Origin: Escherichia phage SP27
Length of the DNA: 64,000 bases
Direction: 5' to 3' (one strand)
Sequence record: LC494302.1
Positions 7,920-19,601 of the stretch are shown here, one piece after another. Every line of letters starts with the position of its first letter. Position 1 is the first letter of the stretch. The position numbers were made by a program, and so were the translations under genes. The notes below the pieces were generated by a model. That model worked only from the letters and a program-made list of their open reading frames with translations, searched no databases and was not told where the DNA came from.

Positions 7920-7957
7920 GCAGTTTACAAATCTTTACAATTGCCGGTATTGACTTA

Positions 7958-7988
7958 TTTTGTCAGTACTGGCATAATGTATTCATTG
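7958..7988 (+). promoter_or_regulatory. class II promoter (TTGACT ... AGTACTGGCATAAT)
   Basis: ATTGACTtattttgtcAGTACTGGCATAAT; no ORF downstream; faces a minus-strand promoter. Confidence 0.45.
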
Positions 7989-8093
7989 GCAGATAAGCCG
8001 TAGCCCATAGGGTGCGGGAGTGTATCTATAGAAAAAGTAGTTTAGTATAGTTACAATTGTGCACCCGGTGGGTTAGCTGTTGTCATGGGGTAT

Positions 8094-8122
8094 ATTATGC
8101 CAGTACTTGATAATGCTGTCAA
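8094..8122 (-). promoter_or_regulatory. minus-strand class II promoter, convergent with the 7958 promoter
   Basis: reverse complement reads ATTGACAgcattatcaAGTACTGGCATAAT. Confidence 0.45.
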
Positions 8123-8168
8123 TACTTTTTTTTTAATATTCAGTACTGAAAACTATTTTTAAAAAGTA

Positions 8169-8196
8169 CTTGCAAACTATGTTTAAAGGCGTATAA
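8169..8196 (+). promoter_or_regulatory. class I early promoter
   Basis: AAAAGTACTTGCAAactatgtttaaaGGCGTATAATGTTTTACATC. Confidence 0.65.
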
Positions 8197-8205
8197 TGTT
8201 TTACA

Positions 8206-8277
8206 TCAGGACGGGGAACGAAATAAGTAACTTCCCGTTAAGTAGCCCAGGAGTAAGGCACACGAAAAACTCCCCTG
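8206..8277 (+). other. conserved structured RNA-like element, copy 1
   Basis: CAGG-ACGGGGAA...TTCCCGT...CTCCCCTG nested complementarity; near-identical copy at 19183-19251. Confidence 0.4.
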
Positions 8278-8287
8278 ATAAAATAGT

Positions 8288-8315
8288 TTGACAATTGTTT
8301 TTAAAAGCGTATAAT
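8288..8315 (+). promoter_or_regulatory. sigma70-like promoter
   Basis: TTGACA 8288-8293, 16 bp spacer, TATAAT 8310-8315. Confidence 0.6.
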
Positions 8316-8347
8316 ACTTACATCAACTACTGAATGAGGGTTACAAA

Positions 8348-8959
8348 ATGAAAACTATCACTACTACTACTTATGTTATGGCTTTTTCTGAATTGAACGC
8401 AGAACAACAAACGTCAGCTATCGAACTGGTTCGGGAACGTGAAAAAAACTTAAACGATGATTATTTTTCTGAAAGTGAAATTGAATACTATAAAGAAACA
8501 GTACTACCGGAATATGGCATTAATGACGCTGAAATACAATTCAGTGGCTTTTGGTCCCAGGGTGACGGTGCATCAATCAGTACTGACCACGTTGACGCAG
8601 TGAAGTTTTTACGCAAGGTAAGAGCATTAACTAAGTATCGCTCAATCCGTCACTTGCTGAATGAAGATGATTTGGCGATGAGTGTAAAGCGTTCGCACTC
8701 CCACTACTCGCATGAGAATACTGTAAGCGGGTACATTGAATCGGCTTACACTGATTTAACCGCAAAACAAGAAACGTTAGTTAATGAGCTTGAGGAACTA
8801 CTCACTGAAACTATTCGTGAATTATCCCGCAAGTTGTACCGTGATTTAGAGAATGCATATGAGGATCAATTCACTACTGAAAACATTACGGCACTGATTG
8901 AGGGTAACGAATATCAATTCAATGTTATTGATGGAGTAGTAGAATCAATCGAATATTAA
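8348..8959 (+). CDS. hypothetical acidic protein
   Basis: 203 aa; GAGGG RBS; no family recognised. Confidence 0.6.
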   Translation: MKTITTTTYVMAFSELNAEQQTSAIELVREREKNLNDDYFSESEIEYYKETVLPEYGINDAEIQFSGFWSQGDGASISTDHVDAVKFLRKVRALTKYRSIRHLLNEDDLAMSVKRSHSHYSHENTVSGYIESAYTDLTAKQETLVNELEELLTETIRELSRKLYRDLENAYEDQFTTENITALIEGNEYQFNVIDGVVESIEY

Positions 8960-8971
8960 TTTAAAAAGTAC

Positions 8972-9031
8972 TTGCAAACTAAGTTTAAAAGCGTATAATA
9001 CTTTATATCGAGGCGGGGAGTGGTTCCCCGC
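8972..9031 (+). promoter_or_regulatory. class I early promoter plus 5' stem-loop cassette
   Basis: TTGCAA 8972-8977, TATAAT 8994-8999; hairpin GCGGGGAgtggTTCCCCGC 9013-9031. Confidence 0.65.
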
Positions 9032-9049
9032 TCAAACGAGGATTTAAAA

Positions 9050-9289
9050 ATGGCTAGTACTAAAACTTACAACGGACACAAAAACAAAACTCATTGGAAT
9101 GTAAGCCTTTGGATTAATAACGGTGAGTCATTGTATCGGCTTGCTCAAAGTTGCATCGCACAAAGTAGAACTAAAGATATTGCTGCGGAATGTATGTACC
9201 GCAGATTAAAAGCCAACGGTACTACTACAACGCCGGACGGCTTTAAGTATAGCACTACTGCGATCCGTGCTGCAATGGTTGGAATGTAA
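9050..9289 (+). CDS. hypothetical protein, paralog of 7009..7248
   Basis: start at ATG 9050 (MASTKTYNGHKNKTHWNVSLWINN); conserved C-term. Confidence 0.65.
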   Translation: MASTKTYNGHKNKTHWNVSLWINNGESLYRLAQSCIAQSRTKDIAAECMYRRLKANGTTTTPDGFKYSTTAIRAAMVGM

Positions 9290-9328
9290 TATTCAGTACT
9301 GAGATAATGGCGGGAACTATTACCCGCC
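9279..9328 (+). promoter_or_regulatory. promoter plus stem-loop
   Basis: TTGGAA 9279-9284, AGTACTGAGATAAT -10; hairpin GGCGGGaactattaCCCGCC 9309-9328. Confidence 0.4.
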
Positions 9329-9346
9329 TTTACTGAGGGTTATCTA

Positions 9347-9634
9347 ATGAGTAAAGTAATAAAGTACAATGTGTTAAGCAAATCATTGTCTATCAGTGAA
9401 TGCACCGATGGTTTTTGGATGTACGATGAAACGCGTGGCATGAATTTAGCTATGCGTGCAAAAACTGCTGAGGCGGCGTATATTCAAGCACTGGAATACT
9501 ACCAGGAACGTTTGAAGGAAGTAGAAGAAGATTATAAAAGCCTCAAAGCGAAAGTAGATCATTTCGTCGGTCAATTCGTGGAAGACAACGACGAGGACGG
9601 GCACTACTGCGACCGTTGCGGATCTTACAGTTAA
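9347..9634 (+). CDS. hypothetical protein
   Basis: 95 aa; C-terminal CDRCGSYS. Confidence 0.55.
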   Translation: MSKVIKYNVLSKSLSISECTDGFWMYDETRGMNLAMRAKTAEAAYIQALEYYQERLKEVEEDYKSLKAKVDHFVGQFVEDNDEDGHYCDRCGSYS

Positions 9635-9651
9635 GTACTAAGGATTATATA

Positions 9652-9864
9652 ATGAGTGATTTAATTGAACGTATCAAAGAGCTTGAAGAAAAAGAATTGC
9701 AGTTGATCGGGTTACGGAATAAAGTATTCCATGATTTAGGTGGCTTTATTAATGCCTGGGATAGTGGCGATCCTGATGCGTTACCTGCTAACCGCCAGGC
9801 GATGATCAATGATGTGCGTGGTGTCTTTGATTATGTTTTAAAAGTACTAGACACTAAGCAATAA
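9652..9864 (+). CDS. hypothetical protein
   Basis: start at ATG 9652 (MSDLIERIKELEEKE). Confidence 0.55.
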   Translation: MSDLIERIKELEEKELQLIGLRNKVFHDLGGFINAWDSGDPDALPANRQAMINDVRGVFDYVLKVLDTKQ

Positions 9865-9925
9865 AGGCGTATAATACTTTATATTGGTACTGACAAACAT
9901 TATAAGCGATGCAGGAGCTTTAATC

Positions 9926-10111
9926 ATGACAACATTATCTGAGGTTATCCGCGATCAAGCTGCAAAGGCTGGAATGACTGTTATCAATGTAGGGATCAAG
10001 ATTGAGATCTCCCCTAACGAGTTGCAAGGGATTCCCGATCCTACTAGCTGGGATCGTGCTGGGCGAATGATGAGTAATGCTTCATTACTGGACGGTACAA
10101 AATTTAATTAA
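9926..10111 (+). CDS. hypothetical protein
   Basis: start at ATG 9926 after AGGAG RBS (MTTLSEVIRDQ). Confidence 0.5.
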   Translation: MTTLSEVIRDQAAKAGMTVINVGIKIEISPNELQGIPDPTSWDRAGRMMSNASLLDGTKFN

Positions 10112-10118
10112 AAAGTAC

Positions 10119-10178
10119 TTGCAATTAGTTTTCAGTACTGTATAATGGTTTACATCAAAGGGAGAAATGGTTCTCCCT
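10119..10178 (+). promoter_or_regulatory. class I early promoter plus 5' stem-loop cassette
   Basis: TTGCAA 10119-10124, TATAAT 10141-10146; hairpin AGGGAGAAatggTTCTCCCT 10159-10178. Confidence 0.65.
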
Positions 10179-10196
10179 GGTAATGAGGAAAATACA

Positions 10197-10418
10197 ATGG
10201 CTAATATCACTACTCTTTCCCAACTGGAAGCACTGGTTAAATCTATGCGGGAACATGCCGACAAAATCGGCGTACAAGATCCAGCCGTTTGCTTCTGCGA
10301 CGAATTGAATGATGATACACTGGTAATAGCAGAAGTCCAGGACGTTTCTAACTATTCCTCGCGTTACACTGGCGGCGTAGCAAATAAAGGTGACTTCTGT
10401 TTATACCTTACAAAATAA
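10197..10418 (+). CDS. hypothetical protein
   Basis: start at ATG 10197 (MANITTLSQ) after GAGGA RBS. Confidence 0.55.
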   Translation: MANITTLSQLEALVKSMREHADKIGVQDPAVCFCDELNDDTLVIAEVQDVSNYSSRYTGGVANKGDFCLYLTK

Positions 10419-10453
10419 CAACGCGGGGAGATAATAACTCCCCGTTACTTTTT
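10419..10453 (+). terminator. intrinsic terminator
   Basis: AACGCGGGGAGataataaCTCCCCGTT stem followed by T-run. Confidence 0.5.
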
Positions 10454-10524
10454 CAGTACTGAATCATTTAATAGACGGATCTCGGCACCCGGTGGGTTAG
10501 TGACTGTTTCGTCTTGATGTAGTA

Positions 10525-10553
10525 ATTATGCCAGTACTGGATGCACTTGTCAA
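10525..10553 (-). promoter_or_regulatory. minus-strand class II promoter
   Basis: reverse complement reads TTGACAagtgcatccAGTACTGGCATAAT; transcribes leftward through GCACCCGGTGGG element. Confidence 0.45.
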
Positions 10554-10586
10554 CAACTATTTTTCAAATACTTTTTATTAAAATAC

Positions 10587-10640
10587 TTGCAATTAGTTTT
10601 TAAACGCGTATAATGTTTTGCATAGGGGGAGCGGTTCCCC
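10587..10640 (+). promoter_or_regulatory. class I early promoter plus 5' stem-loop cassette
   Basis: TTGCAA 10587-10592, TATAAT 10609-10614; hairpin GGGGGAgcggTTCCCC. Confidence 0.6.
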
Positions 10641-10661
10641 TGGTAACTAAGGAATAATAAA

Positions 10662-10898
10662 ATGCTTGAACAAATCAAATCAACGTCTGCGAATGTAACG
10701 GGAACGGTTGTACACTTTACTAGTGATGAATCGCGGGGCGTTCCCTATTGTGCTGTACATGTAAACACTGATGGCAACTACTGGTTTACGGTTTACGGAT
10801 CATATTCATTTGGACGGCCAGGGCATCAAAAAATTCTGGATAAAGTACAACCAACGGGTAAAAATATCACTGCCGAAATGTTTTATAAAAAATCATAA
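10662..10898 (+). CDS. hypothetical protein
   Basis: 78 aa downstream of cassette. Confidence 0.55.
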   Translation: MLEQIKSTSANVTGTVVHFTSDESRGVPYCAVHVNTDGNYWFTVYGSYSFGRPGHQKILDKVQPTGKNITAEMFYKKS

Positions 10899-10903
10899 AG
10901 TAC

Positions 10904-10962
10904 TTGCAATTAGTTTTTAGTACTGTATAATATTTTACATCGCAAGGGGAAACGGTTTCCCC
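10904..10962 (+). promoter_or_regulatory. class I early promoter plus 5' stem-loop cassette
   Basis: TTGCAA 10904-10909, TATAAT 10926-10931; hairpin GGGGAAacggTTTCCCC 10946-10962. Confidence 0.65.
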
Positions 10963-10982
10963 TGGTAACTAAGGATAATCAA

Positions 10983-11282
10983 ATGAAAATTGCAATCATC
11001 GCCCTGGCTTTATCTGTTTCCTCTTTCGCTGTTAATGCGTCGTTAGATGTAAGTAGTGAAAAATTCATTCAGTGCACTGTTGCAATGACCGATGAAAGAA
11101 CTGGCGAGATTGTATTAAAGGATTTAGAGATCCAGCCGGAAGCATTTAAAAACGGCCCGTTCCATGAAGAAGACGAAAACGGTAGCACGACAATTTATTA
11201 TGATGCCAGTTCCAAGCGTGGATCGGTCACTGTAATGGATACTGAGAAAGTAACACACACAGGCGTTATTAATTGCCGTTGA
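10983..11282 (+). CDS. small secreted or periplasmic protein (predicted signal peptide)
   Basis: N-terminus MKIAIIALALSVSSFAVNAS is signal-peptide-like (basic start, hydrophobic core, A-x-A-like site). Confidence 0.55.
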   Translation: MKIAIIALALSVSSFAVNASLDVSSEKFIQCTVAMTDERTGEIVLKDLEIQPEAFKNGPFHEEDENGSTTIYYDASSKRGSVTVMDTEKVTHTGVINCR

Positions 11283-11303
11283 TAGATACTACGGGGTAAC
11301 ATC

Positions 11304-11534
11304 ATGACTAAGCGAATTGTTTTACTTAACGAAAGCAGTACTACACAACTACTTAACGCCGTGCATTATGATATTGAAACGAGCGTTAATCTTATCAGTA
11401 CTGTAGTACTGTTGGACACTGGAAAGGTCGCCAATGATAAAGCGATTGCAGGTATATTAACGGATCTTGAGCCTGGTAGCAGTGCACCCATAACGTTAAA
11501 TGGTAAAGTGTTTAATATTTTACTCACTGATTAA
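11304..11534 (+). CDS. hypothetical protein
   Basis: 76 aa; followed by terminator. Confidence 0.55.
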   Translation: MTKRIVLLNESSTTQLLNAVHYDIETSVNLISTVVLLDTGKVANDKAIAGILTDLEPGSSAPITLNGKVFNILLTD

Positions 11535-11540
11535 GTACAT

Positions 11541-11568
11541 AGCCCACCAGGTGGGCTTTTTTGTTTTT
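11541..11568 (+). terminator. intrinsic terminator
   Basis: AGCCCACCaGGTGGGCT hairpin followed by TTTTTTGTTTTT. Confidence 0.75.
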
Positions 11569-11767
11569 ATAGTATCGTAGTACTGAGATACTTTGAAAAT
11601 AGTTTTAAGAAAGTAGTTGACATTACCACAGAAAAGCGTAGAATGTATTACATCAAGACGGGGAGCACTAAGTAGACCGCCAGTAAGTCGAACGAAAAAC
11701 TGGACACGTCGAGAAAACTTTGATACACTAATAAACGTAAACTAAACTTTAATTGAGGATTTATAAA

Positions 11768-12250
11768 ATGGCTAATGTAAAATCATTCATCAAAGCACTG
11801 GTAGCAAATGAAACTAACGTCGCGGCTGAGATCCTGGCTGAACTGGATAACGATACCATGAAAGCGGTACGCAATAATTTTAACATCGCGTACAGTACTG
11901 CGAAAGAACTACAAGCAAATAAAGCGGCAGAAATTGAAGCGGCAAAGGCGGCCCGTGAAGCAGAACTACAAGCAACAATCGAAAGTATCCAGGCGGCGGT
12001 GTCTGGATTGGATCTGGAAGTGGTTGTGGAAATGGCACATAAAGCCCTGGCGGTTAAGTATGGTGAAGATAAGCCAGAATCTAAACCTAAAAAATGGATT
12101 CAAGAACGTGTTACTGTAGTACTTGATAACGGGGAAGAACATATGATTCCTGTACGCGGTAACTGCATTGCGGTAGTACTGGACGCTATCAAAGAAAGCG
12201 GTATGACTCGCGAGGAATGGATCGAAGCTCATCGCAAAGTTGAAGCATAA
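11768..12250 (+). CDS. hypothetical protein
   Basis: start at ATG 11768 (MANVKSF) after GAGGA RBS; Ala/Glu-rich central helix. Confidence 0.55.
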   Translation: MANVKSFIKALVANETNVAAEILAELDNDTMKAVRNNFNIAYSTAKELQANKAAEIEAAKAAREAELQATIESIQAAVSGLDLEVVVEMAHKALAVKYGEDKPESKPKKWIQERVTVVLDNGEEHMIPVRGNCIAVVLDAIKESGMTREEWIEAHRKVEA

Positions 12251-12271
12251 CAATTAAAGTACTGAATCACT

Positions 12272-12300
12272 AGCCCACCTTAAACAGTGGGCTTTTTTGT
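12272..12300 (+). terminator. intrinsic terminator
   Basis: AGCCCACcttaaacaGTGGGCT followed by TTTTTTGT. Confidence 0.7.
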
Positions 12301-12453
12301 GTCTGTAGTATTCCAGTCCACCAGCACCGCCTAGAATCGATTCTAACGCATTAAACTGATTATCTGATGCATTGCCCTAGCTGGTGGCGTGAAGGTCGTT
12401 AGAATGCGATTGAGAGCGTTTAAAGTATTTTGCAAAAAGTAATAAAAAGTACT

Positions 12454-12512
12454 TGCACGATTAAGAGATTAGCGTATAATGTTTTACATCGAGAGGGGGA
12501 AACGGTTCTCCT
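12454..12512 (+). promoter_or_regulatory. class I early promoter plus 5' stem-loop cassette
   Basis: TTGCAC 12454-12459, GCGTATAAT 12475-12480; hairpin GGGGGAAacggTTCTCC. Confidence 0.6.
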
Positions 12513-12535
12513 TCCAAATCAAAGGAATCAAAACA

Positions 12536-12763
12536 ATGGCTATTATCATTACTCGCGTATCTGGTACTACTGGCAACGAACAAGTAGTTGCAGTCATTAC
12601 CAACAAGGAAGGTGCGGAATTGCAAAATGCAATGAATACCTGGGCCGTTAATGAGTTCGGTCAGTGGGCAAGTGTAGCATACATTGAAACCTATCAAGTG
12701 CCGTCGATTAGTTTAACTGATTTGGGCGTTGAGCGTATCCTTTGCCTGGATGAATTAAATTAA
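12536..12763 (+). CDS. hypothetical protein
   Basis: start at ATG 12536 (MAIIITRVSG). Confidence 0.55.
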   Translation: MAIIITRVSGTTGNEQVVAVITNKEGAELQNAMNTWAVNEFGQWASVAYIETYQVPSISLTDLGVERILCLDELN

Positions 12764-12772
12764 AAAAGTACT

Positions 12773-12832
12773 TGCAAAGTAAATCGAATAAAGTATAATA
12801 CATTACATCAAGGGGAGAAATGGTTCTCCCCA
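12773..12832 (+). promoter_or_regulatory. class I early promoter plus 5' stem-loop cassette
   Basis: TTGCAA 12773-12778, TATAAT 12794-12799; hairpin GGGGAGAAatggTTCTCCCC 12813-12832. Confidence 0.65.
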
Positions 12833-12848
12833 CTACAAGGAAACTAAA

Positions 12849-12992
12849 ATGAAAACTTGTCAATGTGGTCAGAAATCTATTACGGGTTTAAAGCGGGGCG
12901 TTGCTCTTTGCCAGTACCATTATAATTTACAAGTATGGGGTAAAGAATGGGCCGACCAGGTGGAAGCAGCAAAGAAAGCAAAAAGTAAGTAA
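12849..12992 (+). CDS. hypothetical small Cys-containing protein (47 aa, below ORF-track cutoff)
   Basis: read by hand: MKTCQCGQKSITGLKRGVALCQYHYN...; own cassette and RBS. Confidence 0.45.
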   Translation: MKTCQCGQKSITGLKRGVALCQYHYNLQVWGKEWADQVEAAKKAKSK

Positions 12993-13011
12993 AAATATTA
13001 TCACAGTACTA

Positions 13012-13040
13012 TTGACATAGTTTGATAGTACTGGCATAAT
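13012..13040 (+). promoter_or_regulatory. class II promoter
   Basis: CAGTACTATTGACAtagtttgatAGTACTGGCATAAT; no 5' hairpin. Confidence 0.6.
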
Positions 13041-13073
13041 AGATTTTATCAAGACAACTAAGAGGAAATTAAA

Positions 13074-13418
13074 ATGGCTAACATCAATACTATAGCAGCA
13101 CAAAATATCAACCTGTCTTCTGTTGAAGTTGTACACATTGCCGCCCGGCGTTGGTTCCAGGCGTCTTATGGTAATACTTATTTCTCTTTAACGGTAGATG
13201 TTGAAATCAATGGCGAATTTATTGAAGTAGTAAACGTGCCGTTCCAATATGGCTACGGGGATCATTTTGACACTGTAGCAATGGAAGAATTTAGCAAGGT
13301 TATTAATATGGAAGGTAAAGAGTTTTTACGCGGTTCTTATCTTTCCCGTTTTTGCCGTGATAATAATATCACTGTTTATAGTTCGGTAACTGATGTTAAA
13401 CGCAAAAAAGATCTTTAA
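13074..13418 (+). CDS. hypothetical protein, paralog of 19957..20280
   Basis: shares GNTY, YGYG and C-terminal DVKRKKD with the 19957 gene. Confidence 0.6.
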   Translation: MANINTIAAQNINLSSVEVVHIAARRWFQASYGNTYFSLTVDVEINGEFIEVVNVPFQYGYGDHFDTVAMEEFSKVINMEGKEFLRGSYLSRFCRDNNITVYSSVTDVKRKKDL

Positions 13419-13498
13419 TTAGCTTTACTTTATGCAGATACTTTGATATAGTGTCTGCATAGGGGAAAGAAATTAAATTAACTTAAGAGGATAGTATA

Positions 13499-13768
13499 AT
13501 GAAAAATATCAGTACTTTAATCGATGCAGGTACACATGTTCGGCGGTCTATGGTTGCAACCAGTACTACAAAACAAGTAGCGAGCGGTTATCTTGTATTT
13601 GTGCACGATGGAAAACTCCTGGAACGTTCAATCAATTTTGATGTTAAAAACAATTGCCGTTTTATTATCTTTAAGCGTGAGCAATATAAAATTGATTTAC
13701 CAGCAAAGCCCATTAGTGGGGCGTACAACGTGCAATCAATGTTTGAACGTCAACCATACACCTATTAA
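13499..13768 (+). CDS. hypothetical protein
   Basis: 89 aa. Confidence 0.5.
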   Translation: MKNISTLIDAGTHVRRSMVATSTTKQVASGYLVFVHDGKLLERSINFDVKNNCRFIIFKREQYKIDLPAKPISGAYNVQSMFERQPYTY

Positions 13769-13819
13769 TCAAAACATCGTTAGCGGTCGATTCAGGCCGC
13801 TTATATTGGGGATTATACC

Positions 13820-14092
13820 ATGAACGTTAATCAAGTACTGAATGAGATCGAAAGCATCATTAAACCGATGAAGCGTACTGATGCTATGTTAACACCGGAA
13901 GAATGCCGCCTTTATGAGCGTTACAGCGTCGAACAAGTCCAGGCAATGGCTATGGCTACCCCAGCCGTTAAACCGCCTGAGAATGCGTTACAGGACGTTA
14001 CAGGGGATTATATCATCAATCCAGTACTAGGGAAGATGGCTGCAATCACCGAAGATCAACAAGACTACTTAAGCCAGTACTTAAAAGGTTAA
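13820..14092 (+). CDS. hypothetical protein
   Basis: 90 aa. Confidence 0.5.
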   Translation: MNVNQVLNEIESIIKPMKRTDAMLTPEECRLYERYSVEQVQAMAMATPAVKPPENALQDVTGDYIINPVLGKMAAITEDQQDYLSQYLKG

Positions 14093-14097
14093 TTAAT

Positions 14098-14307
14098 ATG
14101 CTTACTGTACAGGATAAGATCGACATCTTAAAGGTTAATATGTATGTGATTGATGCAGTACCTGGTAAAGTATTTGCATACGATGATAGTACTGTAAGCG
14201 ATTTCTACTATAGCCAGGCCGTGGGGGATCTTTCTGTACAGTCGGTTATTGAAAACGTAGTTAATGCAGCGTATGAGCATTTACTTTCAAATAGTACTTG
14301 CAATTAG
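14098..14307 (+). CDS. hypothetical protein
   Basis: 69 aa immediately after previous gene. Confidence 0.5.
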   Translation: MLTVQDKIDILKVNMYVIDAVPGKVFAYDDSTVSDFYYSQAVGDLSVQSVIENVVNAAYEHLLSNSTCN

Positions 14308-14357
14308 TTTTTAAACGCGTATAATGTTTTACATGAAGGGGAGAAATGATTCTCCCC
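14298..14357 (+). promoter_or_regulatory. class I early promoter plus 5' stem-loop cassette
   Basis: TTGCAA 14298-14303, TATAAT 14320-14325; hairpin GGGGAGAAatgaTTCTCCCC 14338-14357. Confidence 0.65.
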
Positions 14358-14376
14358 ACTAATTAAGGAATATGAA

Positions 14377-14523
14377 ATGAAAGCATCAAAAAAGAGTACT
14401 AACAAGAAAGCACGTTCAACCTTAGATGGGGTATTCCCTTTACGTTTCGTTGATGAAGTGGTTTCCTACCCGCCTGGCCTTACTCCTGAGATGGTAGAAA
14501 GTTTGCGTAAATCTAAAAAATAG
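14377..14523 (+). CDS. hypothetical small basic protein (48 aa, below ORF-track cutoff)
   Basis: read by hand: MKASKKSTNKKARSTLDG...; AAGGA RBS. Confidence 0.4.
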   Translation: MKASKKSTNKKARSTLDGVFPLRFVDEVVSYPPGLTPEMVESLRKSKK

Positions 14524-14526
14524 TAC

Positions 14527-14586
14527 TTGCAATTAGTTTTTAGTACTGTATAATGTTTTACATAGAGGGGGGAAATGGTTCTCCCC
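14527..14586 (+). promoter_or_regulatory. class I early promoter plus 5' stem-loop cassette
   Basis: TTGCAA 14527-14532, TATAAT 14549-14554; hairpin GGGGGGAAatggTTCTCCCC. Confidence 0.65.
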
Positions 14587-14604
14587 AATAACAGGAGAAA
14601 CAAA

Positions 14605-14757
14605 ATGAAACAATACAACGCTCGGTTTGATGTTACTATCGGCAACGGTAAAGGTCAATTCTCTTTCAGTACTCGACGCAGTTATACAGAAAACTTCCTG
14701 CGTAATTGTGCACTGACCGCCGCACAAATTAAACATTACTTTCAGGCTAAAAAATGA
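14605..14757 (+). CDS. hypothetical small protein (50 aa)
   Basis: start at ATG 14605 (MKQYNARFDV) after AGGAGA RBS. Confidence 0.45.
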   Translation: MKQYNARFDVTIGNGKGQFSFSTRRSYTENFLRNCALTAAQIKHYFQAKK

Positions 14758-14843
14758 GATCATTAGCTTATTACAGTTCGGCCCTGGTCGGTGCATTGAT
14801 CGCGGCGTTGTTAGTAACCTATCTATTCTTTATGGTGATTTAA
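14754..14843 (+). CDS. possible small hydrophobic peptide (29 aa)
   Basis: read by hand: MRSLAYYSSALVGALIAALLVTYLFFMVI; ATGA overlap. Confidence 0.3.
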   Translation: MRSLAYYSSALVGALIAALLVTYLFFMVI

Positions 14844-14981
14844 ATGAATCCTAACGGTATAATTTACAGTACTCCTAAAACGAAAGCAGACAAGGTAAAC
14901 GCTAAAAAAGCGAAAGTAAAGGAGTACATCAAGCAAGGCATGACGCGAAAGGCGGCGATTCTAAAAGCTAAAAATAAATGA
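14844..14981 (+). CDS. possible small Lys-rich protein (45 aa)
   Basis: read by hand: MNPNGIIYSTPKTKADKVNAKKAKVKEY... Confidence 0.3.
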   Translation: MNPNGIIYSTPKTKADKVNAKKAKVKEYIKQGMTRKAAILKAKNK

Positions 14982-14987
14982 AAAAAG

Positions 14988-15009
14988 TGGTTGACTTCGG
15001 TCAGCCATT
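14988..15009 (+). terminator. intrinsic terminator (first part of repeated intergenic module)
   Basis: GGTTGAC-TTCG-GTCAGCC hairpin with tetraloop, then TTTTGC. Confidence 0.5.
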
Positions 15010-15112
15010 TTGCTATTATATATTCATTGAGAGATAGCTCACTAGCCCACAGGGTGCAGGAGTGTATCTATTGTATAATGTTTGAGTACTTAAAACTATT
15101 TTTAAAAAAGTA

Positions 15113-15172
15113 CTTGCAAACTATCTCAATAAGCGTATAATGTTTTACATCGCAAGGGGAAACGGTTTCCCC
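15113..15172 (+). promoter_or_regulatory. class I early promoter plus 5' stem-loop cassette
   Basis: TTGCAA 15113-15118, TATAAT 15135-15140; hairpin GGGGAAacggTTTCCCC 15156-15172. Confidence 0.65.
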
Positions 15173-15192
15173 TAGTAATAAGGAAACAAATC

Positions 15193-15534
15193 ATGACTAT
15201 CTCAATTGCTCAATCTAACTTTGAAAACGAAATCATCGCCCAGGCACTGCGTTTAAATGATGGTCGGGCCGAAATCAATTACGGTTTCAATTCAGGCGGT
15301 TGTGAAAAATATCAGTACTTTATAACTGCTGATGGCTGTGTCCTGGGCATCAATACAGTTATTGTAAACATCCAAAAAATTAATTTCAATGATCCAGACG
15401 ATAGCCAGTTTTACATCACTGGCGTAGACGTGAACTATGAGGATGACTCACTAACTGATGATCACACTGGCGAGCGGTTAGAAAGTGCATACGGTGAAGA
15501 TGATTATCAGTCCGGTCCAGAAGATTTCGAATAA
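15193..15534 (+). CDS. hypothetical acidic protein
   Basis: 113 aa. Confidence 0.55.
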   Translation: MTISIAQSNFENEIIAQALRLNDGRAEINYGFNSGGCEKYQYFITADGCVLGINTVIVNIQKINFNDPDDSQFYITGVDVNYEDDSLTDDHTGERLESAYGEDDYQSGPEDFE

Positions 15535-15547
15535 TATAAAAAAATAG

Positions 15548-15606
15548 TTTGACAATAGATTATAGTACTGTATAATGTTTTACATGAAGGGGAGAATAGT
15601 TCTCCC
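15548..15606 (+). promoter_or_regulatory. promoter plus 5' stem-loop cassette (TTGACA variant)
   Basis: TTGACA 15548-15553, TAGTACTGTATAAT -10; hairpin GGGGAGAAtagTTCTCCCC. Confidence 0.65.
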
Positions 15607-15627
15607 CACTAACAGAGAGAAAACAAA

Positions 15628-15840
15628 ATGGCTAATATCCGGTCGAAATTAAAAAATGCAAAACAAGTTTTATTTTCAGATCATGAATACTTTAATAAAG
15701 ATATTACAGGAGTTACAAGTATCAAGGAAGTAAAAGAAAAAACCGGCGTTTTGTGTGATGTGCGATTAGTTGGAACATTTGGGAATAACGTGCTATATCG
15801 CTGCGGTGATTACAATTTTACACTGACTATCATTAACTAA
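15628..15840 (+). CDS. hypothetical protein
   Basis: 70 aa. Confidence 0.55.
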   Translation: MANIRSKLKNAKQVLFSDHEYFNKDITGVTSIKEVKEKTGVLCDVRLVGTFGNNVLYRCGDYNFTLTIIN

Positions 15841-15868
15841 AAATATTATCACAGTACTATCAAAGCTA

Positions 15869-15897
15869 TTGACAATGATTGATAGTACTGGCATAAT
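15869..15897 (+). promoter_or_regulatory. class II promoter
   Basis: CAGTACTATcaaagctATTGACAatgattgatAGTACTGGCATAAT. Confidence 0.6.
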
Positions 15898-15932
15898 AAC
15901 TTTTATCAACTACACTACTAAGGAATTAAAAA

Positions 15933-16112
15933 ATGGCTATCATCGCAAAAACTGAAATCGTTGGTCTGGATTCTATCATCATGACGTTTGAAGATCAAAA
16001 AGGTATGTATGTAGTTTCCTATGGTGATTATGTTCGGGAGTATGAAACGGTAGACGAAGCCTTTGAAAGTTATATTCGCCAGGTGAATAAAGCATACGAC
16101 GACTACCGCTAA
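15933..16112 (+). CDS. hypothetical small protein (59 aa, below ORF-track cutoff)
   Basis: read by hand: MAIIAKTEIVGLDSIIMTFEDQKG...; AAGGA RBS. Confidence 0.45.
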   Translation: MAIIAKTEIVGLDSIIMTFEDQKGMYVVSYGDYVREYETVDEAFESYIRQVNKAYDDYR

Positions 16113-16139
16113 AATATATTACCAGTACTATTAAATCTA

Positions 16140-16168
16140 TTGACAATGTTTGATAGTACTGTATAATA
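16140..16168 (+). promoter_or_regulatory. class II promoter
   Basis: CAGTACTATtaaatctATTGACAatgtttgatAGTACTGTATAAT. Confidence 0.6.
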
Positions 16169-16211
16169 AGTTTTATAAACAGTAGTTAACTTAACCTAAG
16201 AGAGAAATAAA

Positions 16212-16355
16212 ATGATCGCACTGGATTCATTCATCGACGCAGTACTGGCAAAAACTGGCGAGGATCTGACCGCAGAACAATACGCGATGATCGAACAATG
16301 TCAACAGGACGGTAAATCGGTGAAAGATACTGTTAAGATTATCCGCAAGATGTAA
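16212..16355 (+). CDS. hypothetical small protein (47 aa, below ORF-track cutoff)
   Basis: read by hand: MIALDSFIDAVLAKTGEDLTAEQYAMIEQCQQDG...; followed by terminator. Confidence 0.45.
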   Translation: MIALDSFIDAVLAKTGEDLTAEQYAMIEQCQQDGKSVKDTVKIIRKM

Positions 16356-16361
16356 GATTAT

Positions 16362-16390
16362 AGCCCACTGGTTAACGCTGGTGGGCTTTA
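16362..16390 (+). terminator. intrinsic terminator
   Basis: AGCCCACtggttaacgctgGTGGGCT hairpin, weak T-run. Confidence 0.5.
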
Positions 16391-16460
16391 ATTCATCACC
16401 CTATACAATGCCAGTACTCAACCGTTTATCTCGTTAGAATGCGTTACAGGACGTTTAACA

Positions 16461-16658
16461 ATGATTAGCATGAAATCAGTACAAAAACAAATAGAAACAT
16501 TATCAAAAATTAAACGTAAACAGTACTCCTTAGAATATACAATCAATGGTAACTATCATCTAATGAAAGAGAATAATTTTATAGTCATTGATGAATCATT
16601 GCAAATCATTAGTATAGTACTGAAAGCATTAATCAATGACAGAAAAAAATTAAAATAA
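16461..16658 (+). CDS. hypothetical protein
   Basis: 65 aa. Confidence 0.45.
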   Translation: MISMKSVQKQIETLSKIKRKQYSLEYTINGNYHLMKENNFIVIDESLQIISIVLKALINDRKKLK

Positions 16659-16662
16659 TCTA

Positions 16663-16691
16663 TTGACAATATCATCCAGTACTGGCATAAT
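16663..16691 (+). promoter_or_regulatory. class II promoter
   Basis: ATTGACAatatcatccAGTACTGGCATAAT; followed by about 300 nt leader with TGATCA repeats. Confidence 0.55.
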
Positions 16692-16989
16692 ACTTACACC
16701 AAGACGAGAACGTCACTAACCCATAGGGTGCACAAATGTAACTGTATAATATTGATCAAAAAATGATCTGATCAATACTTGATCAATTTGCGTAAAGTAG
16801 TATAATTCTATGCAGTTGGTTAGACGAAAGGTTATGATTAGTAGTGCAAGTGTATAAAAATTTTCATGGTGTATCGTTCCGCACATATGGGGATGAATAT
16901 GTGGTATCATGTGGATTGGAAAAAGTAAGAACAAGTAATATTATTGTCGCATTACAGTACTATAGTATTTTTATAATGAGGTTAAAATA

Positions 16990-17247
16990 ATGGCTGTAGG
17001 ATTCGCGAAAGATGGGGCCGAACAAGACGAGATTAACGCAGTGATTCAGGCTGCCGTTAACCACGCTAGAAAGCAAATTAACGCACAAATAGAATCACTG
17101 ATACATTGCCTCGACTGCGGCGATATAATCCCTGAGAAACGACGCCAGGCCGTTAAGGGATGTAAGTACTGCATAACTTGCCAGGAGGATCATGATAGTA
17201 CTTTTAAACGTCCCCCGCGTAATTGTTGGCATAGATCTATGAGATAA
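16990..17247 (+). CDS. TraR/DksA-family C4 zinc-finger protein
   Basis: INAQ...CLDCGDIIPEKRRQAVKGCKYCITCQ matches the TraR core INAH...CEACGNPIPEARRKIFPGVTLCVECQ as I recall it. Confidence 0.75.
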   Translation: MAVGFAKDGAEQDEINAVIQAAVNHARKQINAQIESLIHCLDCGDIIPEKRRQAVKGCKYCITCQEDHDSTFKRPPRNCWHRSMR

Positions 17248-17253
17248 AAAGTA

Positions 17254-17281
17254 TTGACAGTACTGAAAGATAGTTTATAAT
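17254..17281 (+). promoter_or_regulatory. sigma70-like promoter
   Basis: TTGACAgtactgaaagatagttTATAAT. Confidence 0.55.
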
Positions 17282-17310
17282 ATTTTATATCTTAACTGAG
17301 GATTGAAATC

Positions 17311-17667
17311 ATGGGAATACAACATATCACGCGTACTACTGACAATGGCGAGATCACTGGCTATCAAGTACAGGGCAAAGTAGCACAATTGCAGTACTGG
17401 TTTGTTAAACGTGGAATCATTGCACCGGATCTTGATTATGACCGTGTAGCGTTTATTGATTCTCTTTATGTTGATCCTGATAGTCGGGGCAATGGTGAAG
17501 GTAACGAATTAATGAATGCCTTTATTGATGCCGCCGATGATTCAGATTGTATCATCTTAGAATGCGATACGGGAGAAGATAACGCCTTTAATCTTAAAGA
17601 ATGGTACGAAGGTTTCGGATTCGAGGTATTGATAGATAGTGAATATCCTATCATGATTTTATCATAG
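17311..17667 (+). CDS. GNAT-family acetyltransferase-like protein
   Basis: LYVDPDSRGNGEGNELMNAF resembles the acetyl-CoA-binding R/Q-x-x-G-x-G/A motif of GNAT enzymes; 118 aa. Confidence 0.45.
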   Translation: MGIQHITRTTDNGEITGYQVQGKVAQLQYWFVKRGIIAPDLDYDRVAFIDSLYVDPDSRGNGEGNELMNAFIDAADDSDCIILECDTGEDNAFNLKEWYEGFGFEVLIDSEYPIMILS

Positions 17668-17669
17668 TA

Positions 17670-17727
17670 CTTGCATTTAGTTTTCAGTACTGTTATAGTA
17701 CTTACATCAAGGGGAAACATCTTCCCC
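17670..17727 (+). promoter_or_regulatory. class I early promoter plus 5' stem-loop cassette
   Basis: TTGCAT 17670-17675, TATAGT -10; hairpin GGGGAAacatcTTCCCC 17711-17727. Confidence 0.55.
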
Positions 17728-17745
17728 TACTAAGAGGAAATGAAA

Positions 17746-17934
17746 ATGGAAAACTTATCAAGTATTTTAGTACAAGATGATTTCGGTAATCCTGGAAGTG
17801 CTATCATTGTTCGGGGCAATAAAGCAACGTTTGTTATTGCTGGTGGACCCGTACAGCGTAGCATTAAAAATAATGCTGTTACCATTAATAATGTACGCTA
17901 TCGCTTAGATAAAGAATTAATTCATAAACTGTAA
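17746..17934 (+). CDS. hypothetical protein
   Basis: start at second ATG (MENLSS), 7 nt after GAGGA. Confidence 0.5.
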   Translation: MENLSSILVQDDFGNPGSAIIVRGNKATFVIAGGPVQRSIKNNAVTINNVRYRLDKELIHKL

Positions 17935-17961
17935 TATTAATTTAATAGAGGATAACAATAA

Positions 17962-18285
17962 ATGTACATTCATACTACTATCACAAAGGAAGTCCGTTGC
18001 CAGTTCGAAAGTATTCCGGGCGTATGTTTCATCACTGGTACGTTTTCCCCTGGTGATCGTGATAATCCAGTACTGTTACAATTACGCCATCCATCATGGG
18101 ATAAAGCATTTGATCTACCGTTGAATGAATTCGCAACTACTGCTGAAAAGTACATTAAAAATATTCGCGAGAATGATCGACTATTCATTAATGCTTTTAG
18201 TGATTCCGCGTTAAGCGAGATCCACGGCGTATTGGTTGCAATCATGGAATCAATGCAGAAAACTAAATTCAAACAAGGTGAATAA
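17962..18285 (+). CDS. hypothetical protein
   Basis: 107 aa; GAGGATAA RBS region. Confidence 0.55.
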   Translation: MYIHTTITKEVRCQFESIPGVCFITGTFSPGDRDNPVLLQLRHPSWDKAFDLPLNEFATTAEKYIKNIRENDRLFINAFSDSALSEIHGVLVAIMESMQKTKFKQGE

Positions 18286-18291
18286 AAACTA

Positions 18292-18351
18292 TTGACAATA
18301 GATTATAGTACTGTATAATAAGTTACATGAAGGGGAGAAATGATTCTCCCC
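18292..18351 (+). promoter_or_regulatory. promoter plus 5' stem-loop cassette (TTGACA variant)
   Basis: TTGACA 18292-18297, TATAAT 18314-18319; hairpin GGGGAGAAatgaTTCTCCCC 18332-18351. Confidence 0.65.
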
Positions 18352-18368
18352 ACTGAGAGGAAAGAAAA

Positions 18369-18581
18369 ATGCAAGGTCAACTAATCGTTCGTAAATGGTC
18401 TGATACTAACGAAAAACCGTGGGATGTACAATACATCGGACCGGATGGGGTATCACGTTATCAGCCTGGCGTAACGCATAGTACTGAGCAATATGCCGCC
18501 GCTCACCGCGAACGCCTGTTAGAATCCATGAAACAGGGATTCTGTGAAAAATTCATTCAAGATCATTGGCTGAAAGATTAA
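18369..18581 (+). CDS. hypothetical protein
   Basis: 70 aa. Confidence 0.55.
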   Translation: MQGQLIVRKWSDTNEKPWDVQYIGPDGVSRYQPGVTHSTEQYAAAHRERLLESMKQGFCEKFIQDHWLKD

Positions 18582-18598
18582 TAGAAGGAGTACAGCTT

Positions 18599-18691
18599 AT
18601 GCAAATGAATCCGATGATTATTGTTTTAGCTGTACTTATGATCATTCATGCAATTGTAGAAGTATTAACGCAATCAGGAGTAATAAAATGA
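18599..18691 (+). CDS. possible small membrane peptide (30 aa)
   Basis: read by hand: MQMNPMIIVLAVLMIIHAIVEVLTQSGVIK; AAGGAG RBS 8 nt upstream. Confidence 0.4.
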   Translation: MQMNPMIIVLAVLMIIHAIVEVLTQSGVIK

Positions 18692-18861
18692 TTCAAGTAG
18701 AATTATCAGTACTGAAAGATCTGTTTTATCGGTTAGGTACTACTGGAGAGTATCCTAAAAGTGATACCGCAAAACTTTTTGTATCACTCGATTTATGGCA
18801 ACGCGAACAATTAGTAATGTCCTGGCGTAAAGGTAAAGCAGATAGCGAGGTGAAAGCATGA
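18688..18861 (+). CDS. hypothetical small protein (57 aa)
   Basis: ATGA overlap with previous; read by hand. Confidence 0.4.
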   Translation: MIQVELSVLKDLFYRLGTTGEYPKSDTAKLFVSLDLWQREQLVMSWRKGKADSEVKA

Positions 18862-19007
18862 AAGAATTCTTATTCGAAGTAGTGTTTCAAGGTGTCGGTA
18901 GTAATCAATTGATTCGCTCAAGTGGTTACAATGTTAACCAGGCATGGAATAACATTAAACAAATGTACCCGAACGCTATCACATATCGCAACCCAAAAGA
19001 AGTTTAA
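18858..19007 (+). CDS. hypothetical small protein (49 aa)
   Basis: ATGA overlap with previous; read by hand. Confidence 0.4.
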   Translation: MKEFLFEVVFQGVGSNQLIRSSGYNVNQAWNNIKQMYPNAITYRNPKEV

Positions 19008-19021
19008 AAATAATTGAAAAA

Positions 19022-19043
19022 GGGATTGACTCCGGTCAGTCCC
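19022..19043 (+). terminator. intrinsic terminator (first part of repeated intergenic module)
   Basis: GGGATTGAC-TCCG-GTCAGTCCC hairpin preceded by A-run, followed by TTTGC. Confidence 0.55.
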
Positions 19044-19145
19044 TTTGCTATTATATACGCATAGAAACAAATCAGCCCACCGGGTGCATAAATGTATCTA
19101 TTGTTTGCTGGTGGCTAGTACTGAAAACTATTTTTAAAAAAGTAC

Positions 19146-19173
19146 TTGCATTGTACTTAGAATCAAGTATAAT
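19146..19173 (+). promoter_or_regulatory. class I early promoter
   Basis: AAAAAGTACTTGCATtgtacttagaatcaaGTATAATGTTTTACATC. Confidence 0.65.
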
Positions 19174-19182
19174 GTTTTACAT

Positions 19183-19251
19183 CAGGACGGGGAACGAAAC
19201 AAGTAACCCCGTTAAGTAGTCCAGGAGTAAGACATACGAAAAACTCCCCTG
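19183..19251 (+). other. conserved structured RNA-like element, copy 2
   Basis: near-identical to 8206-8277 with a few substitutions; same flanking promoter arrangement. Confidence 0.4.
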
Positions 19252-19261
19252 ATAAAATAGT

Positions 19262-19289
19262 TTGACAATAGAAAGTAAACGAGTATAAT
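19262..19289 (+). promoter_or_regulatory. sigma70-like promoter
   Basis: TTGACA 19262-19267, 16 bp spacer, TATAAT 19284-19289. Confidence 0.6.
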
Positions 19290-19322
19290 ACTTACATCAA
19301 CCACTGATAAGGAAACATAAAA

Positions 19323-19598
19323 ATGCGGATTCTACTGACAGCTAACGAAATCGAACAAGTACTGACTACTAACCTGGAAGACTGGAAACGTGAAGCAGAT
19401 ATCCAGGCGGTTCAATGGTTAAATGATAAGTTAACGCCGGATGACTTAAGCAAGATTGTAGATCCTCAATTCTACGAAGATATCCACGACACCGCGTTAA
19501 GCGTCGAGGATGTACTAGATAAGCACTTTATTGATACTGATTTGCAGGTTTACGGTCGTAAAAACTTTATCACTATTCACGACATTTACAATAATTAA
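19323..19598 (+). CDS. hypothetical acidic protein
   Basis: 91 aa. Confidence 0.55.
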   Translation: MRILLTANEIEQVLTTNLEDWKREADIQAVQWLNDKLTPDDLSKIVDPQFYEDIHDTALSVEDVLDKHFIDTDLQVYGRKNFITIHDIYNN

Positions 19599-19601
19599 GT
19601 A

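Follow-up and report, generated by a model that had tools for sequence, protein, structure and literature searches.

The window, a stretch of 64,000 nt from the Asteriusvirus jumbo coliphage Escherichia phage SP27 (LC494302.1), carries three plus-strand copies of a structured element, one of them diverged, which are very probably compact pseudoknotted RNA domains of a hitherto unannotated family, forming the 5'-terminal 75 nt of the early transcripts that the host σ70 RNA polymerase produces. Two long-form copies, copy A (8205–8279, +) and copy B (19181–19253, +), are 92% identical over 77 nt, and 30-nt sub-patterns each have two exact matches in the window where 0 are expected (100 shuffles). 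The diverged copy 3 (11652–11724, +) is a short form that lacks the P2 hairpin. With a covariance model of the core, copies A, 3 and B score 52.7 bits (8237–8276), 50.4 bits (11667–11706) and 55.2 bits (19211–19250), and the best score elsewhere in the window does not exceed 8.4 bits. A sequence-only reading had placed two near-identical copies correctly at the A and B sites, but its start for copy A is off by 1 nt (CAGGACGG begins at 8207), the full domains extend to the limits given above and include a closing helix AUCAGG/CCUGAU, and its count of two missed copy 3. The differences between A and B, which it had assigned mainly to the hairpin loop and 3' arm, do fall in the P2 loop and the P2 3' arm, together with one compensatory pair. 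The pseudoknot and the relatives outside SP27 were overlooked as well; because the T7 A1 leader contains this core too, the element is not specific to SP27.

The common 41-nt core consists of (N)UAAGUAG-N-C, the P3 5' arm, UAAG-N'-C, ACGAAAA and the P3 3' arm, in that order, and folds as an H-type pseudoknot in which the GUAG-N-C strand pairs with G-N'-C(N)UAC within the P3 hairpin loop (helix PK1); L1 is 1–2 nt and L3 is an A-rich strand of 5–6 nt. In the modelled fold this A-rich GAAAA strand is placed so that it would run along the PK1 helix. Copy A forms P1 (8205–8210/8274–8279), P2 (8211–8217/8232–8238), P3 (8250–8254/8269–8273) and PK1 (8242–8247 with 8257–8263, A8260 bulged), with L3 at 8264–8268; copy B forms P1 (19181–19186/19248–19253), P2 (19187–19192/19207–19212), P3 (19224–19228/19243–19247) and PK1 (19216–19221 with 19231–19237). 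The stable fold anticipated for both is found, since A and B adopt the same three-way junction (z = -2.2 and -3.5). In copy 3 two outer helices (11652–11656/11720–11724 and 11657–11660/11707–11710) enclose PK1 (11672–11677 with 11687–11693) and P3 (11680–11684/11699–11703). The domain is sealed either by the closing helix P1, as in the long SP27 copies, or by a second, loop–tail pseudoknot; in T7-like phages the P2 hairpin loop pairs with the 3' tail in place of P1.

Across 33 distinct cores pairing is observed in 94.4% of cells, compared with 20–41% for slid partners. The middle pair of PK1 (N/N') takes all four Watson-Crick combinations (AU 25, CG 3, UA 3, GC 1); four of the six PK1 pairs carry no information, as the search pattern itself dictates them completely or almost completely, and a relaxed scan gave only extra G-U and U-G variants. 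P3 pairs swap between CG and GC and between UA and AU, compensatory changes separate copy 3 from copies A and B, and six covarying versions of the second pseudoknot occur in T7-like phages (among them GUCAA/UUGAC, GAUUAG/CUAAUC, GUCGGU/ACCGAC and GUCAUC/GAUGAC). Both marks of the H-type class, loop–flank pairing and covariation, are thereby present. Covariation and the frequent G-U pairs indicate a plus-strand RNA; a minus-strand RNA was rejected, as its fold z-scores are weaker and the G-U pairs would turn into C-A. What had been described as a replacement for the usual simple hairpin is indeed a conserved structured RNA between tandem promoters, but one that is a pseudoknot domain and more than a variant hairpin.

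Each copy appears to start at the +1 of a strong σ70 promoter, placed by the same -10-to-start spacing (7 nt, then ATC...) as in T7 A1 (annotated start: nt 498). For copy A the promoter is TTGCAA-N16-TATAAT (8170–8197, +), with an A/T-rich UP-like tract upstream and a putative +1 at A8205; a second promoter, TTGACA-N16-TATAAT (8288–8315, +), begins 8 nt past the element and is followed by a gene of phrog_5162 (8348–8959, +; 203 aa). Copy B is arranged in the same way, with TTGCAT-N16-TATAAT (19146–19173, +), a putative +1 at A19181, TTGACA-N16-TATAAT (19262–19289, +) and a gene of phrog_14947 (19323–19598, +; 91 aa), a gene that also comes after the element in Justusliebigvirus muut. The tandem arrangement noted earlier for these two copies (TTGCA-N17-TATAAT before, TTGACA-N16-TATAAT after, then an ATG at 8348 or 19323) thus holds. 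Upstream of copy 3 a terminator-like hairpin with T-run (11541–11565, +) closes the preceding unit; the promoter is TTGACA-N16-TAGAAT (11617–11644, +), the putative +1 A11652, and the following gene (11768–12250, +; 160 aa, phrog_27871) has a homologue directly behind the motif in Erwinia phage Hallingskeid. A common function of the downstream genes was rejected, the three families being mutually unrelated. No terminator-like site lies 3' of the copies (8280–8347, 11725–11767 and 19254–19322), which leaves a free-standing sRNA unsupported; among the roles that the sequence-only reading had offered (sRNA, riboregulator or leader, processing site), a leader fits best.

In T7 the core occupies +39 to +96 of the A1 transcript (536–593), between the annotated A1 (498) and A2 (626) starts, and ends on the A2 -35 hexamer; the T7 A1 leader thus appears to hold a covariation-supported double-pseudoknot domain that has neither a record annotation nor an Rfam family. 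More than 500 T7-like records contain the core, as do rV5-like phages, Justusliebigvirus and other jumbo phages. The carrier lineages (Asteriusvirus, Vequintavirinae, Justusliebigvirus, Munch-like and Erwinia jumbo phages, Studiervirinae, Limelightvirus and Melnykvirinae) are mutually unrelated and rely on host polymerase for early transcription; the element is restricted to virulent phages of Enterobacterales and Aeromonas. In all cases the element lies on the sense strand right behind a strong host-type promoter; in T7-likes it is followed by ocr or SAMase-type genes, and in records related to SP27 a terminal repeat is annotated over the region corresponding to the three copies. The core was not found in Pseudomonas phage gh-1, which belongs to the T7 subfamily, or in SP6 or T5, and neither 5,426 E. 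coli genomes nor plasmids contained it; a host-RNA mimic or prophage origin was rejected because 185,579 species genomes yielded only a T7-like contaminant contig and chance matches.

Known identities were likewise set aside. Rfam 15 gave 0 matches at the gathering threshold over the whole window and only chance-level matches at E<=10 (14.6 bits against a threshold of 40, 12.6 against 83); none of the records carrying the family annotates the element, and the literature, searched for the sequence itself and for any named element between T7 A1 and A2, yielded only template or primer listings. ARAGORN found 0 tRNA or tmRNA genes in the window. A small coding ORF was rejected, as there is no start codon after +1, two of the three frames contain stops and the copies are out of frame with one another through a 2-nt indel; so was a CsrA sponge, the two CAGGA motifs of copies A and B being missing from copy 3 and the T7-like versions. 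CRISPR-repeat mimics and hammerhead, HDV-like and pistol topologies do not fit the strand order by eye and have no Rfam match.

The occurrence of the family in unrelated carriers that use host polymerase, together with its absence from gh-1, points to a partner specific to the host lineage, and its spread among unrelated enterobacterial phages, but not in the Pseudomonas relative, chromosomes or plasmids, implies that selection has acted on an interaction with some host component as infection begins. The family might, as a tentative proposal, constitute a structurally new third class of RNAs that capture or reprogram a host machine without the help of a protein, be it RNA polymerase or a different factor specific to Enterobacterales; such an RNA would be the very first product of infection, shared horizontally among T7-like, rV5-like, phAPEC8-like and jumbo phages, and would have escaped notice in the T7 A1 leader. 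More specifically, it is possible by analogy with put or EAR that the element acts co-transcriptionally on host RNA polymerase, the transcription starts, the polymerase as target and the effect on elongation each being presumed. The domain would fold while leaving the polymerase and would then act on the host elongation complex that made it, keeping this complex in a fast, pause- or termination-resistant state; polymerases from element promoters would cross the hairpin-rich early region more efficiently and, in T7, the genome would be pulled in more efficiently. Co-transcriptional action is favored because the downstream genes differ and because RNase III should cut the T7 leader off the mRNA. 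If RNA polymerase is the target, the element would be a new protein-free elongation modifier addressable on standard T7 A1 templates. Such templates have served for in vitro transcription for decades, and, as a point against this reading, neither anti-pausing nor antitermination specific to A1 is known to have been reported.

The put RNAs of HK022 are ~70 nt long, occur in two copies just past early promoters, contain a triplex and need no protein (PMC9378689). They counteract pausing and termination through contact with the zinc-binding domain of the RNA polymerase β' subunit. The SP27 element resembles them in being about 70 nt long, in occurring more than once past early host-polymerase promoters with no dedicated phage protein apparent, and in its higher-order structure (a pseudoknot with an A-rich strand in place of the triplex); put function is independent of downstream genes (PMC9378689), as the SP27 element also appears to be. 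However, put RNAs have two long stem-loops and no sequence or secondary-structure similarity to the H-type pseudoknot, and they belong to temperate lambdoid rather than virulent phages. Homology was rejected: putL shows no likeness in sequence or fold, and the family model finds nothing in the HK022 early region. Like lambda nut and rrn boxA-boxB, the element is a leader RNA signal directly behind early promoters, but nut needs N and Nus proteins, and the window has neither boxA nor a boxB-type hairpin with a GAAAA pentaloop. The eps-associated RNA (EAR) of Bacillus is a pseudoknotted processive antitermination RNA that acts in cis on the elongating polymerase and requires no phage protein; although it shares a pseudoknot with the SP27 element, EAR is larger, lies in a bacterial operon and is unrelated in sequence, and the SP27 element has no Rfam match.

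The element's independence of the gene downstream speaks for polymerase action. Against it, the T7 domain is present in A1 transcripts only, while those same genes are also covered by transcripts from A2 and A3, and T7-likes already own a boxA for Nus-dependent antitermination, 250–400 nt downstream of the domain (25 nt in contig L029). A required link to boxA was rejected for the window, where the consensus (Y)GCTCTTTAACAA has only 2-mismatch matches, at chance frequency and none near the copies. A need for processive antitermination is not obvious in the window because promoters precede almost every gene, and some of its terminator-delimited units start without the element; an argument for antitermination from a promoterless gene past the terminator at 12272 was dropped, as a promoter is present at ~12453–12481.

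The main rival to co-transcriptional action is a released RNA that binds a host factor, a somewhat doubtful alternative. Here the domain would be excised from the leader, in T7 through RNase III cleavage at R0.3 and in SP27 through RNase E cleavage of the AU-rich stretch past P1, and would then work in trans, as aptamer or decoy, on a host protein, for which ribosomal protein S1, Hfq, RNase E, Rho and defence proteins are examples. As the first phage product, this RNA could work ahead of any phage protein and, if another host factor is the target, would amount to an immediate-early RNA countermeasure. The compact, closed domain of high information with both ends locked in helices, the very strong promoters, the three copies within the terminal repeat of related records and the restricted host range suit such a role, and the loops and PK1 helix are conserved in sequence while the other helices covary, as expected of a recognised surface; S1 binds H-type pseudoknots with nanomolar affinity (PMC7708055). 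Yet no terminator or obvious processing signal lies past the domain, no bacterial-genome sequence resembles it, which speaks against mimicry of a host RNA at the sequence level, and none of the data indicates a partner.

It is unlikely that the element is instead a cis-acting mRNA leader that boosts the next gene, as a shield from 5'-end-dependent decay (RppH/RNase E) or as an S1-dependent standby site of the tisB kind. The domain of copies A and B does stand where other early promoters (~20 in the window) have a simple 5' hairpin, its +1 is paired in P1, and an unstructured AU-rich segment of ~65 nt follows before the SD-AUG; the short form in jumbo phages retains synteny with one gene family. 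The tisB +42 mRNA offers a precedent, a 5' H-type pseudoknot followed by a single-stranded stretch, of the kind that S1 binds (PMC7708055), but the SP27 ribosome-binding site is not sequestered and the T7 domain lies away from any ORF. A plain hairpin suffices at those other promoters, and a cis leader leaves the conserved 41-nt core shared with T7 unexplained; the downstream genes are mutually unrelated, and the promoter between domain and gene would yield many mRNAs without the domain. In T7 >300 nt separate the domain from the first gene, and it would be removed by RNase III at R0.3, the site that parts the A1 leader from the 0.3 mRNA; this separation speaks against an influence in cis on translation or stability in that phage.

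A riboswitch-like aptamer sensing some metabolite or ion of the host upon infection is quite improbable. The size, double-pseudoknot complexity and invariant unpaired nucleotides recall compact pseudoknotted aptamers (preQ1, SAM-II and guanidine-III, for instance), but no Rfam riboswitch matches even at E<=10, neither a terminator nor an SD-sequestering platform is present, and the downstream genes give no metabolic clue. The least probable explanation, a DNA-level feature without an RNA role, part of a mobile promoter cassette (a UP element or recombination site), would account for the ~90% identity of element and second promoter among three unrelated lineages whose flanks differ, for the A-tract ACGAAAAAC, which falls near -45 to -55 relative to the promoter that follows, and for the T7 3' tail that is itself the A2 -35 hexamer, but compensatory changes maintain four helices, pseudoknots included, the G-U pairs are sensible only in plus-strand RNA, loop–tail pairing is retained where the tail is not a promoter (L016, L022 and L041), and the gap to the next promoter varies, copy 3 and L029 having no obvious strong promoter directly past the domain. 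The PeSL cassettes of T4-type phages, early promoter/stem-loop units reportedly located beside small early ORFs and swapped from phage to phage, may be comparable, the SP27 promoter and element being shared across otherwise unrelated phages with differing flanks; PeSLs, however, are simple hairpins serving as recombination substrates, whereas the SP27 element is a conserved, covarying pseudoknot, a compact and portable RNA module of potential interest to phage engineering and synthetic biology.

The two near-identical copies claimed in the sequence-only reading do exist: copy A (8205–8279) and copy B (19181–19253), both on the + strand, are 92% identical over 77 nt, and with both flanking promoters included they have a mean column identity of 88% over 234 columns; 30-nt sub-patterns of the two occur exactly twice (0 expected). 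The stable fold supposed to be common to both is borne out as well, in that one three-way junction is obtained for A and B, with a closing helix P1 (AUCAGG/CCUGAU, +1 included) and two hairpins, P2 (ACGGGG(A)/(U)CCCCGU) and P3 (GGAGU/ACUCC). The predicted minimum-energy folds reach −19.4 and −21.0 kcal/mol (z = −2.2 and −3.5), and the minus strand folds more weakly. The differences between the copies, said to fall mainly in the hairpin loop and the 3' arm, are in the P2 loop, the P2 3' arm and one compensatory pair. In a comparison of eight long-form variants, drawn from three phage lineages, the stems are unvarying, and what varies is the P2 loop, two G-U changes in P2 and three linked positions. 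In the copy of phage muut (comparison sequence L002, 2500–2575) the 5' G-run has one extra G and the 3' C-run one extra C (GGGGG...CCCCC), which could be a homopolymer sequencing error or a hint of G-run/C-run pairing in an alternative conformation. Neither copy A nor copy B contains a start codon or conserved reading frame, and neither is followed by a terminator-like site. Their transcripts would be expected to start at A8205 and A19181, because the spacing from −10 to start is then equal to that at the early promoter T7 A1 (GATACT, 7 nt, then ATCGAG; start annotated at nt 498).

Listing all promoters of the window revealed a diverged, short-form copy 3 (11652–11724, + strand) after the promoter at 11617–11644, with the sequence AUCAAGACGGGGAGCAC-UAAGUAGACCG-CCAGU-AAGUCGAACGAAAA-ACUGG...CGUC...CUUUGAU. 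It has no P2, retains UAAGUAG, UAAG and ACGAAAA, and carries CCAGU/ACUGG as P3 in place of GGAGU/ACUCC. Comparison of the three copies shows that GUAG-N-C 5' of P3 is complementary to G-N'-C(N)NAC in the P3 loop, with N/N' as C-G, U-A and A-U in copies A, B and 3, respectively. This pairing makes the core a classic H-type pseudoknot, with linkers L1 of 1–2 nt, L2 of AA and L3 an A-rich GAAAA strand. The z of ~0 for copy 3 under nested-only folding reflects the fact that such folding does not see the pseudoknot. A covariance model built on the 41-nt core picks out exactly three sites in the window, copy A (52.7 bits), copy 3 (50.4 bits) and copy B (55.2 bits), with the runner-up at 8.4 bits.

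Pairing statistics were drawn from 45 matches to the core model (33 distinct). Standard pairs occupy 94.4% of cells, against 20–41% with partners slid by 1–3 columns, although such cell counts overstate the independent events because the sequences are related by descent; the observed covariation score was reached in 0 of 500 shuffles, a control of the tool that is not a probability. Four pairs of the core pseudoknot helix (PK1) were preset in the search pattern and carry no information; the variable PK1 pair is AU in 25, CG in 3, UA in 3 and GC in 1, with EmilieFrey as the sole exception, and a relaxed scan extends the outer PK1 pairs to G-U and U-G. P3 pairs vary as CG 28/GC 5, CG 26/GC 5/UA 2 and UA 23/AU 9/UG 1, and the outer P3 pair is frequently G-U (13 cases), which fits a + strand RNA only. 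P2 of the T7-like forms is a covarying 4-bp hairpin (CCGG/CCGG, CCAG/CUGG, CCAC/GUGG, CGGG/CCCG) whose 6-nt loop pairs with the 5–6 nt directly 3' of P3 in six covarying versions; this loop-tail pairing is also present where the tail is no promoter (comparison sequences L016, L022 and L041), and L033 is the one exception to the pattern. The same role is taken in the jumbo and rV5-like forms by the closing helix at the 5' end, in the versions AUCAGG/CCUGAU, AUCAA+GACG/CGUC+UUGAU, CAAG+GACGG/CCGUC+CUUG and CAUC+CGG/CCG+GAUG.

The long form is present in 44 phage records at 87–100% identity, its carriers including Asteriusvirus, Justusliebigvirus (muut, outra, EmilieFrey) and Vequintavirinae (A73, A7_1); a promoter −10 lies directly 5' of it at every locus examined, with differing upstream sequence and partly differing downstream genes. 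The copy 3 core matches T7-like Yersinia phages at ~nt 553–587, and also Munch-like Salmonella and Klebsiella jumbo phages, Erwinia phage Hallingskeid and the rV5-like LTH01. In T7 the domain occupies 536–593 (+39 to +96 relative to the A1 start), and the UUGAC in its final helix doubles as the −35 hexamer of promoter A2. A T7-type 89-mer matches 502 phage records (T7, T3 and 13a among them), with host genera that include Klebsiella, Salmonella, Yersinia, Citrobacter, Enterobacter, Serratia, Pantoea, Kosakonia, Providencia, Morganella and Aeromonas; no annotation of the element itself occurs among the matches listed. Pattern scans of IMG/VR and metagenomes yielded more variants; ~10 metagenome matches lack P3 complementarity, about as many as chance should give when a pattern specifies 20 bases. 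No instance of the motif came from 185,579 species-representative genomes (save a single T7-like contaminant contig and matches of chance level), from 5,426 complete E. coli genomes or PLSDB plasmids, or from the early regions of HK022, Pseudomonas phage gh-1, SP6 and T5. Its absence from gh-1, despite membership in the T7 subfamily and possession of A1–A3 host promoters, indicates that the family follows host lineage, not phage ancestry. The initial transcribed sequence at several early promoters of the window (CATCGAGAGCGGGAACAC...; 7637–7660 and others) is closely like the T7 A1 transcript start (ATCGAGAGGGACAC...; comparison sequence L010, 498–515), which suggests that unrelated coliphages share whole promoter and 5' leader cassettes.

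A host machine would fit as the partner of the domain, given its place at the head of early transcripts, its indifference to downstream genes, its restriction by host lineage, and loop sequences that are conserved while other helices covary. The reading we favour, tentatively and by analogy, is that the domain acts co-transcriptionally on the host elongation complex. HK022 put, of ~70 nt, lies in two copies directly after PL and PR, forms a triplex, requires no protein factor and persists after release from the transcript (PMC9378689). It serves as precedent for the action on the elongation complex that is proposed here. EAR is another precedent for an RNA acting on this complex. To our knowledge no A1-specific elongation phenotype has been reported, despite decades of in vitro work with T7 A1. 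At most, the domain may work like put or EAR; membership in put, nut or any Rfam family was rejected. A perfect boxA (CGCTCTTTAACAA) lies ~15 nt after the pseudoknot core in an IMG/VR contig (L029, 4111–4178), whereas boxA of the T7-likes is 250–400 nt downstream of the domain; the window contains none. No description of the domain was found in full-text literature or by sequence string, older subscription papers being outside reach, and we rate it as a new fold variant among phage early-leader RNA signals that may realistically prove to be something more unusual.

Only slightly less probable than action on the elongation complex is that a released RNA binds a host factor, as could be envisaged from the binding of H-type pseudoknots by S1 and the recruitment of 30S subunits by the tisB 5' pseudoknot (PMC7708055). 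The genes after the window's three copies belong to mutually unrelated families without assigned function, and ocr-like or gp0.3-type genes lie far 3' of the domain in T7-likes; moreover, a second promoter follows the domain in most instances examined, so that the domain is on only part of the mRNA pool. Together with the cut at the T7 RNase III site R0.3, which lies at ~nt 890 and separates the leader from the 0.3 mRNA, these facts make it unlikely that the domain generally acts in cis on translation or mRNA stability, although the window's own copies may do so.

The gene that follows copy 3 (11768–12250) and its Hallingskeid counterpart, also located after the motif, are homologous (30% identity, E = 3e-8); in the comparison sequences the genes after the short-form motif lie at L057 1671–2297 and L055 3758–4345. 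The protein has an Ala/Lys/Glu-rich N-terminal half of coiled-coil-like look and a C-terminal motif, RV.V..NGEE..P.xGN, apparently shared, by eye, with the Munch gene after the motif. This motif recalls the H-NS C-terminal domain, a likeness for which Pfam and PDB gave no support.

Asteriusvirus jumbo coliphages (PBECO4, 121Q, G17, Turkey3 and others) match both 500-bp regions around copies A and B at 93–99% identity, and where related records mark the genome ends, these positions are within direct terminal repeats. Copy A is ~3.4 kb from the physical left end, by comparison with records starting at the terminal repeat, and GC skew in 1–4800 is negative for the first ~4 kb and positive beyond; a genome end or repeat junction therefore seems to lie inside the window. 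An array of small + strand genes spans ~4–5 kb to ~27 kb, with a near-consensus sigma70 promoter before almost every gene. The promoters come in two sub-types, TTGCAA-N16-TATAAT and TTGACA-N16-TATAAT, and in both the tract upstream is rich in A/T; downstream of each promoter come a GC-rich 5' hairpin, an SD and ATG. In related Rak2-like phages, RpoD-like promoters with UP-like elements are concentrated in the early region (PMC5259590). In 20794–20836 a strong terminator-like hairpin (GGCGGGATCAGTTCCCGCC + T6) has an SD and ATG (20834) within the 20 nt after it, and the gene, having no promoter of its own, would depend on read-through. The palindromic octamer CAGTACTG has 65 sites in the window (107..62785; e.g. 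8141–8148, 10133–10140, 22459–22466) vs 0.65 expected (at most 3 in 100 shuffles), spread throughout in promoter spacers (…cagtactgTATAAT) and, by coordinates, apparently also ORF interiors; it could bind a regulator or serve as a target of DNA modification or of packaging. A hairpin with a 12-bp stem, AAAGGGATTGACTCCGGTCAGTCCCTTT, occurs three times (19019–19046, 22011–22038 and, as a variant, 14984–15011), each followed by GCTATTATAT, and one of them lies ~100 nt upstream of the promoter that precedes copy B.
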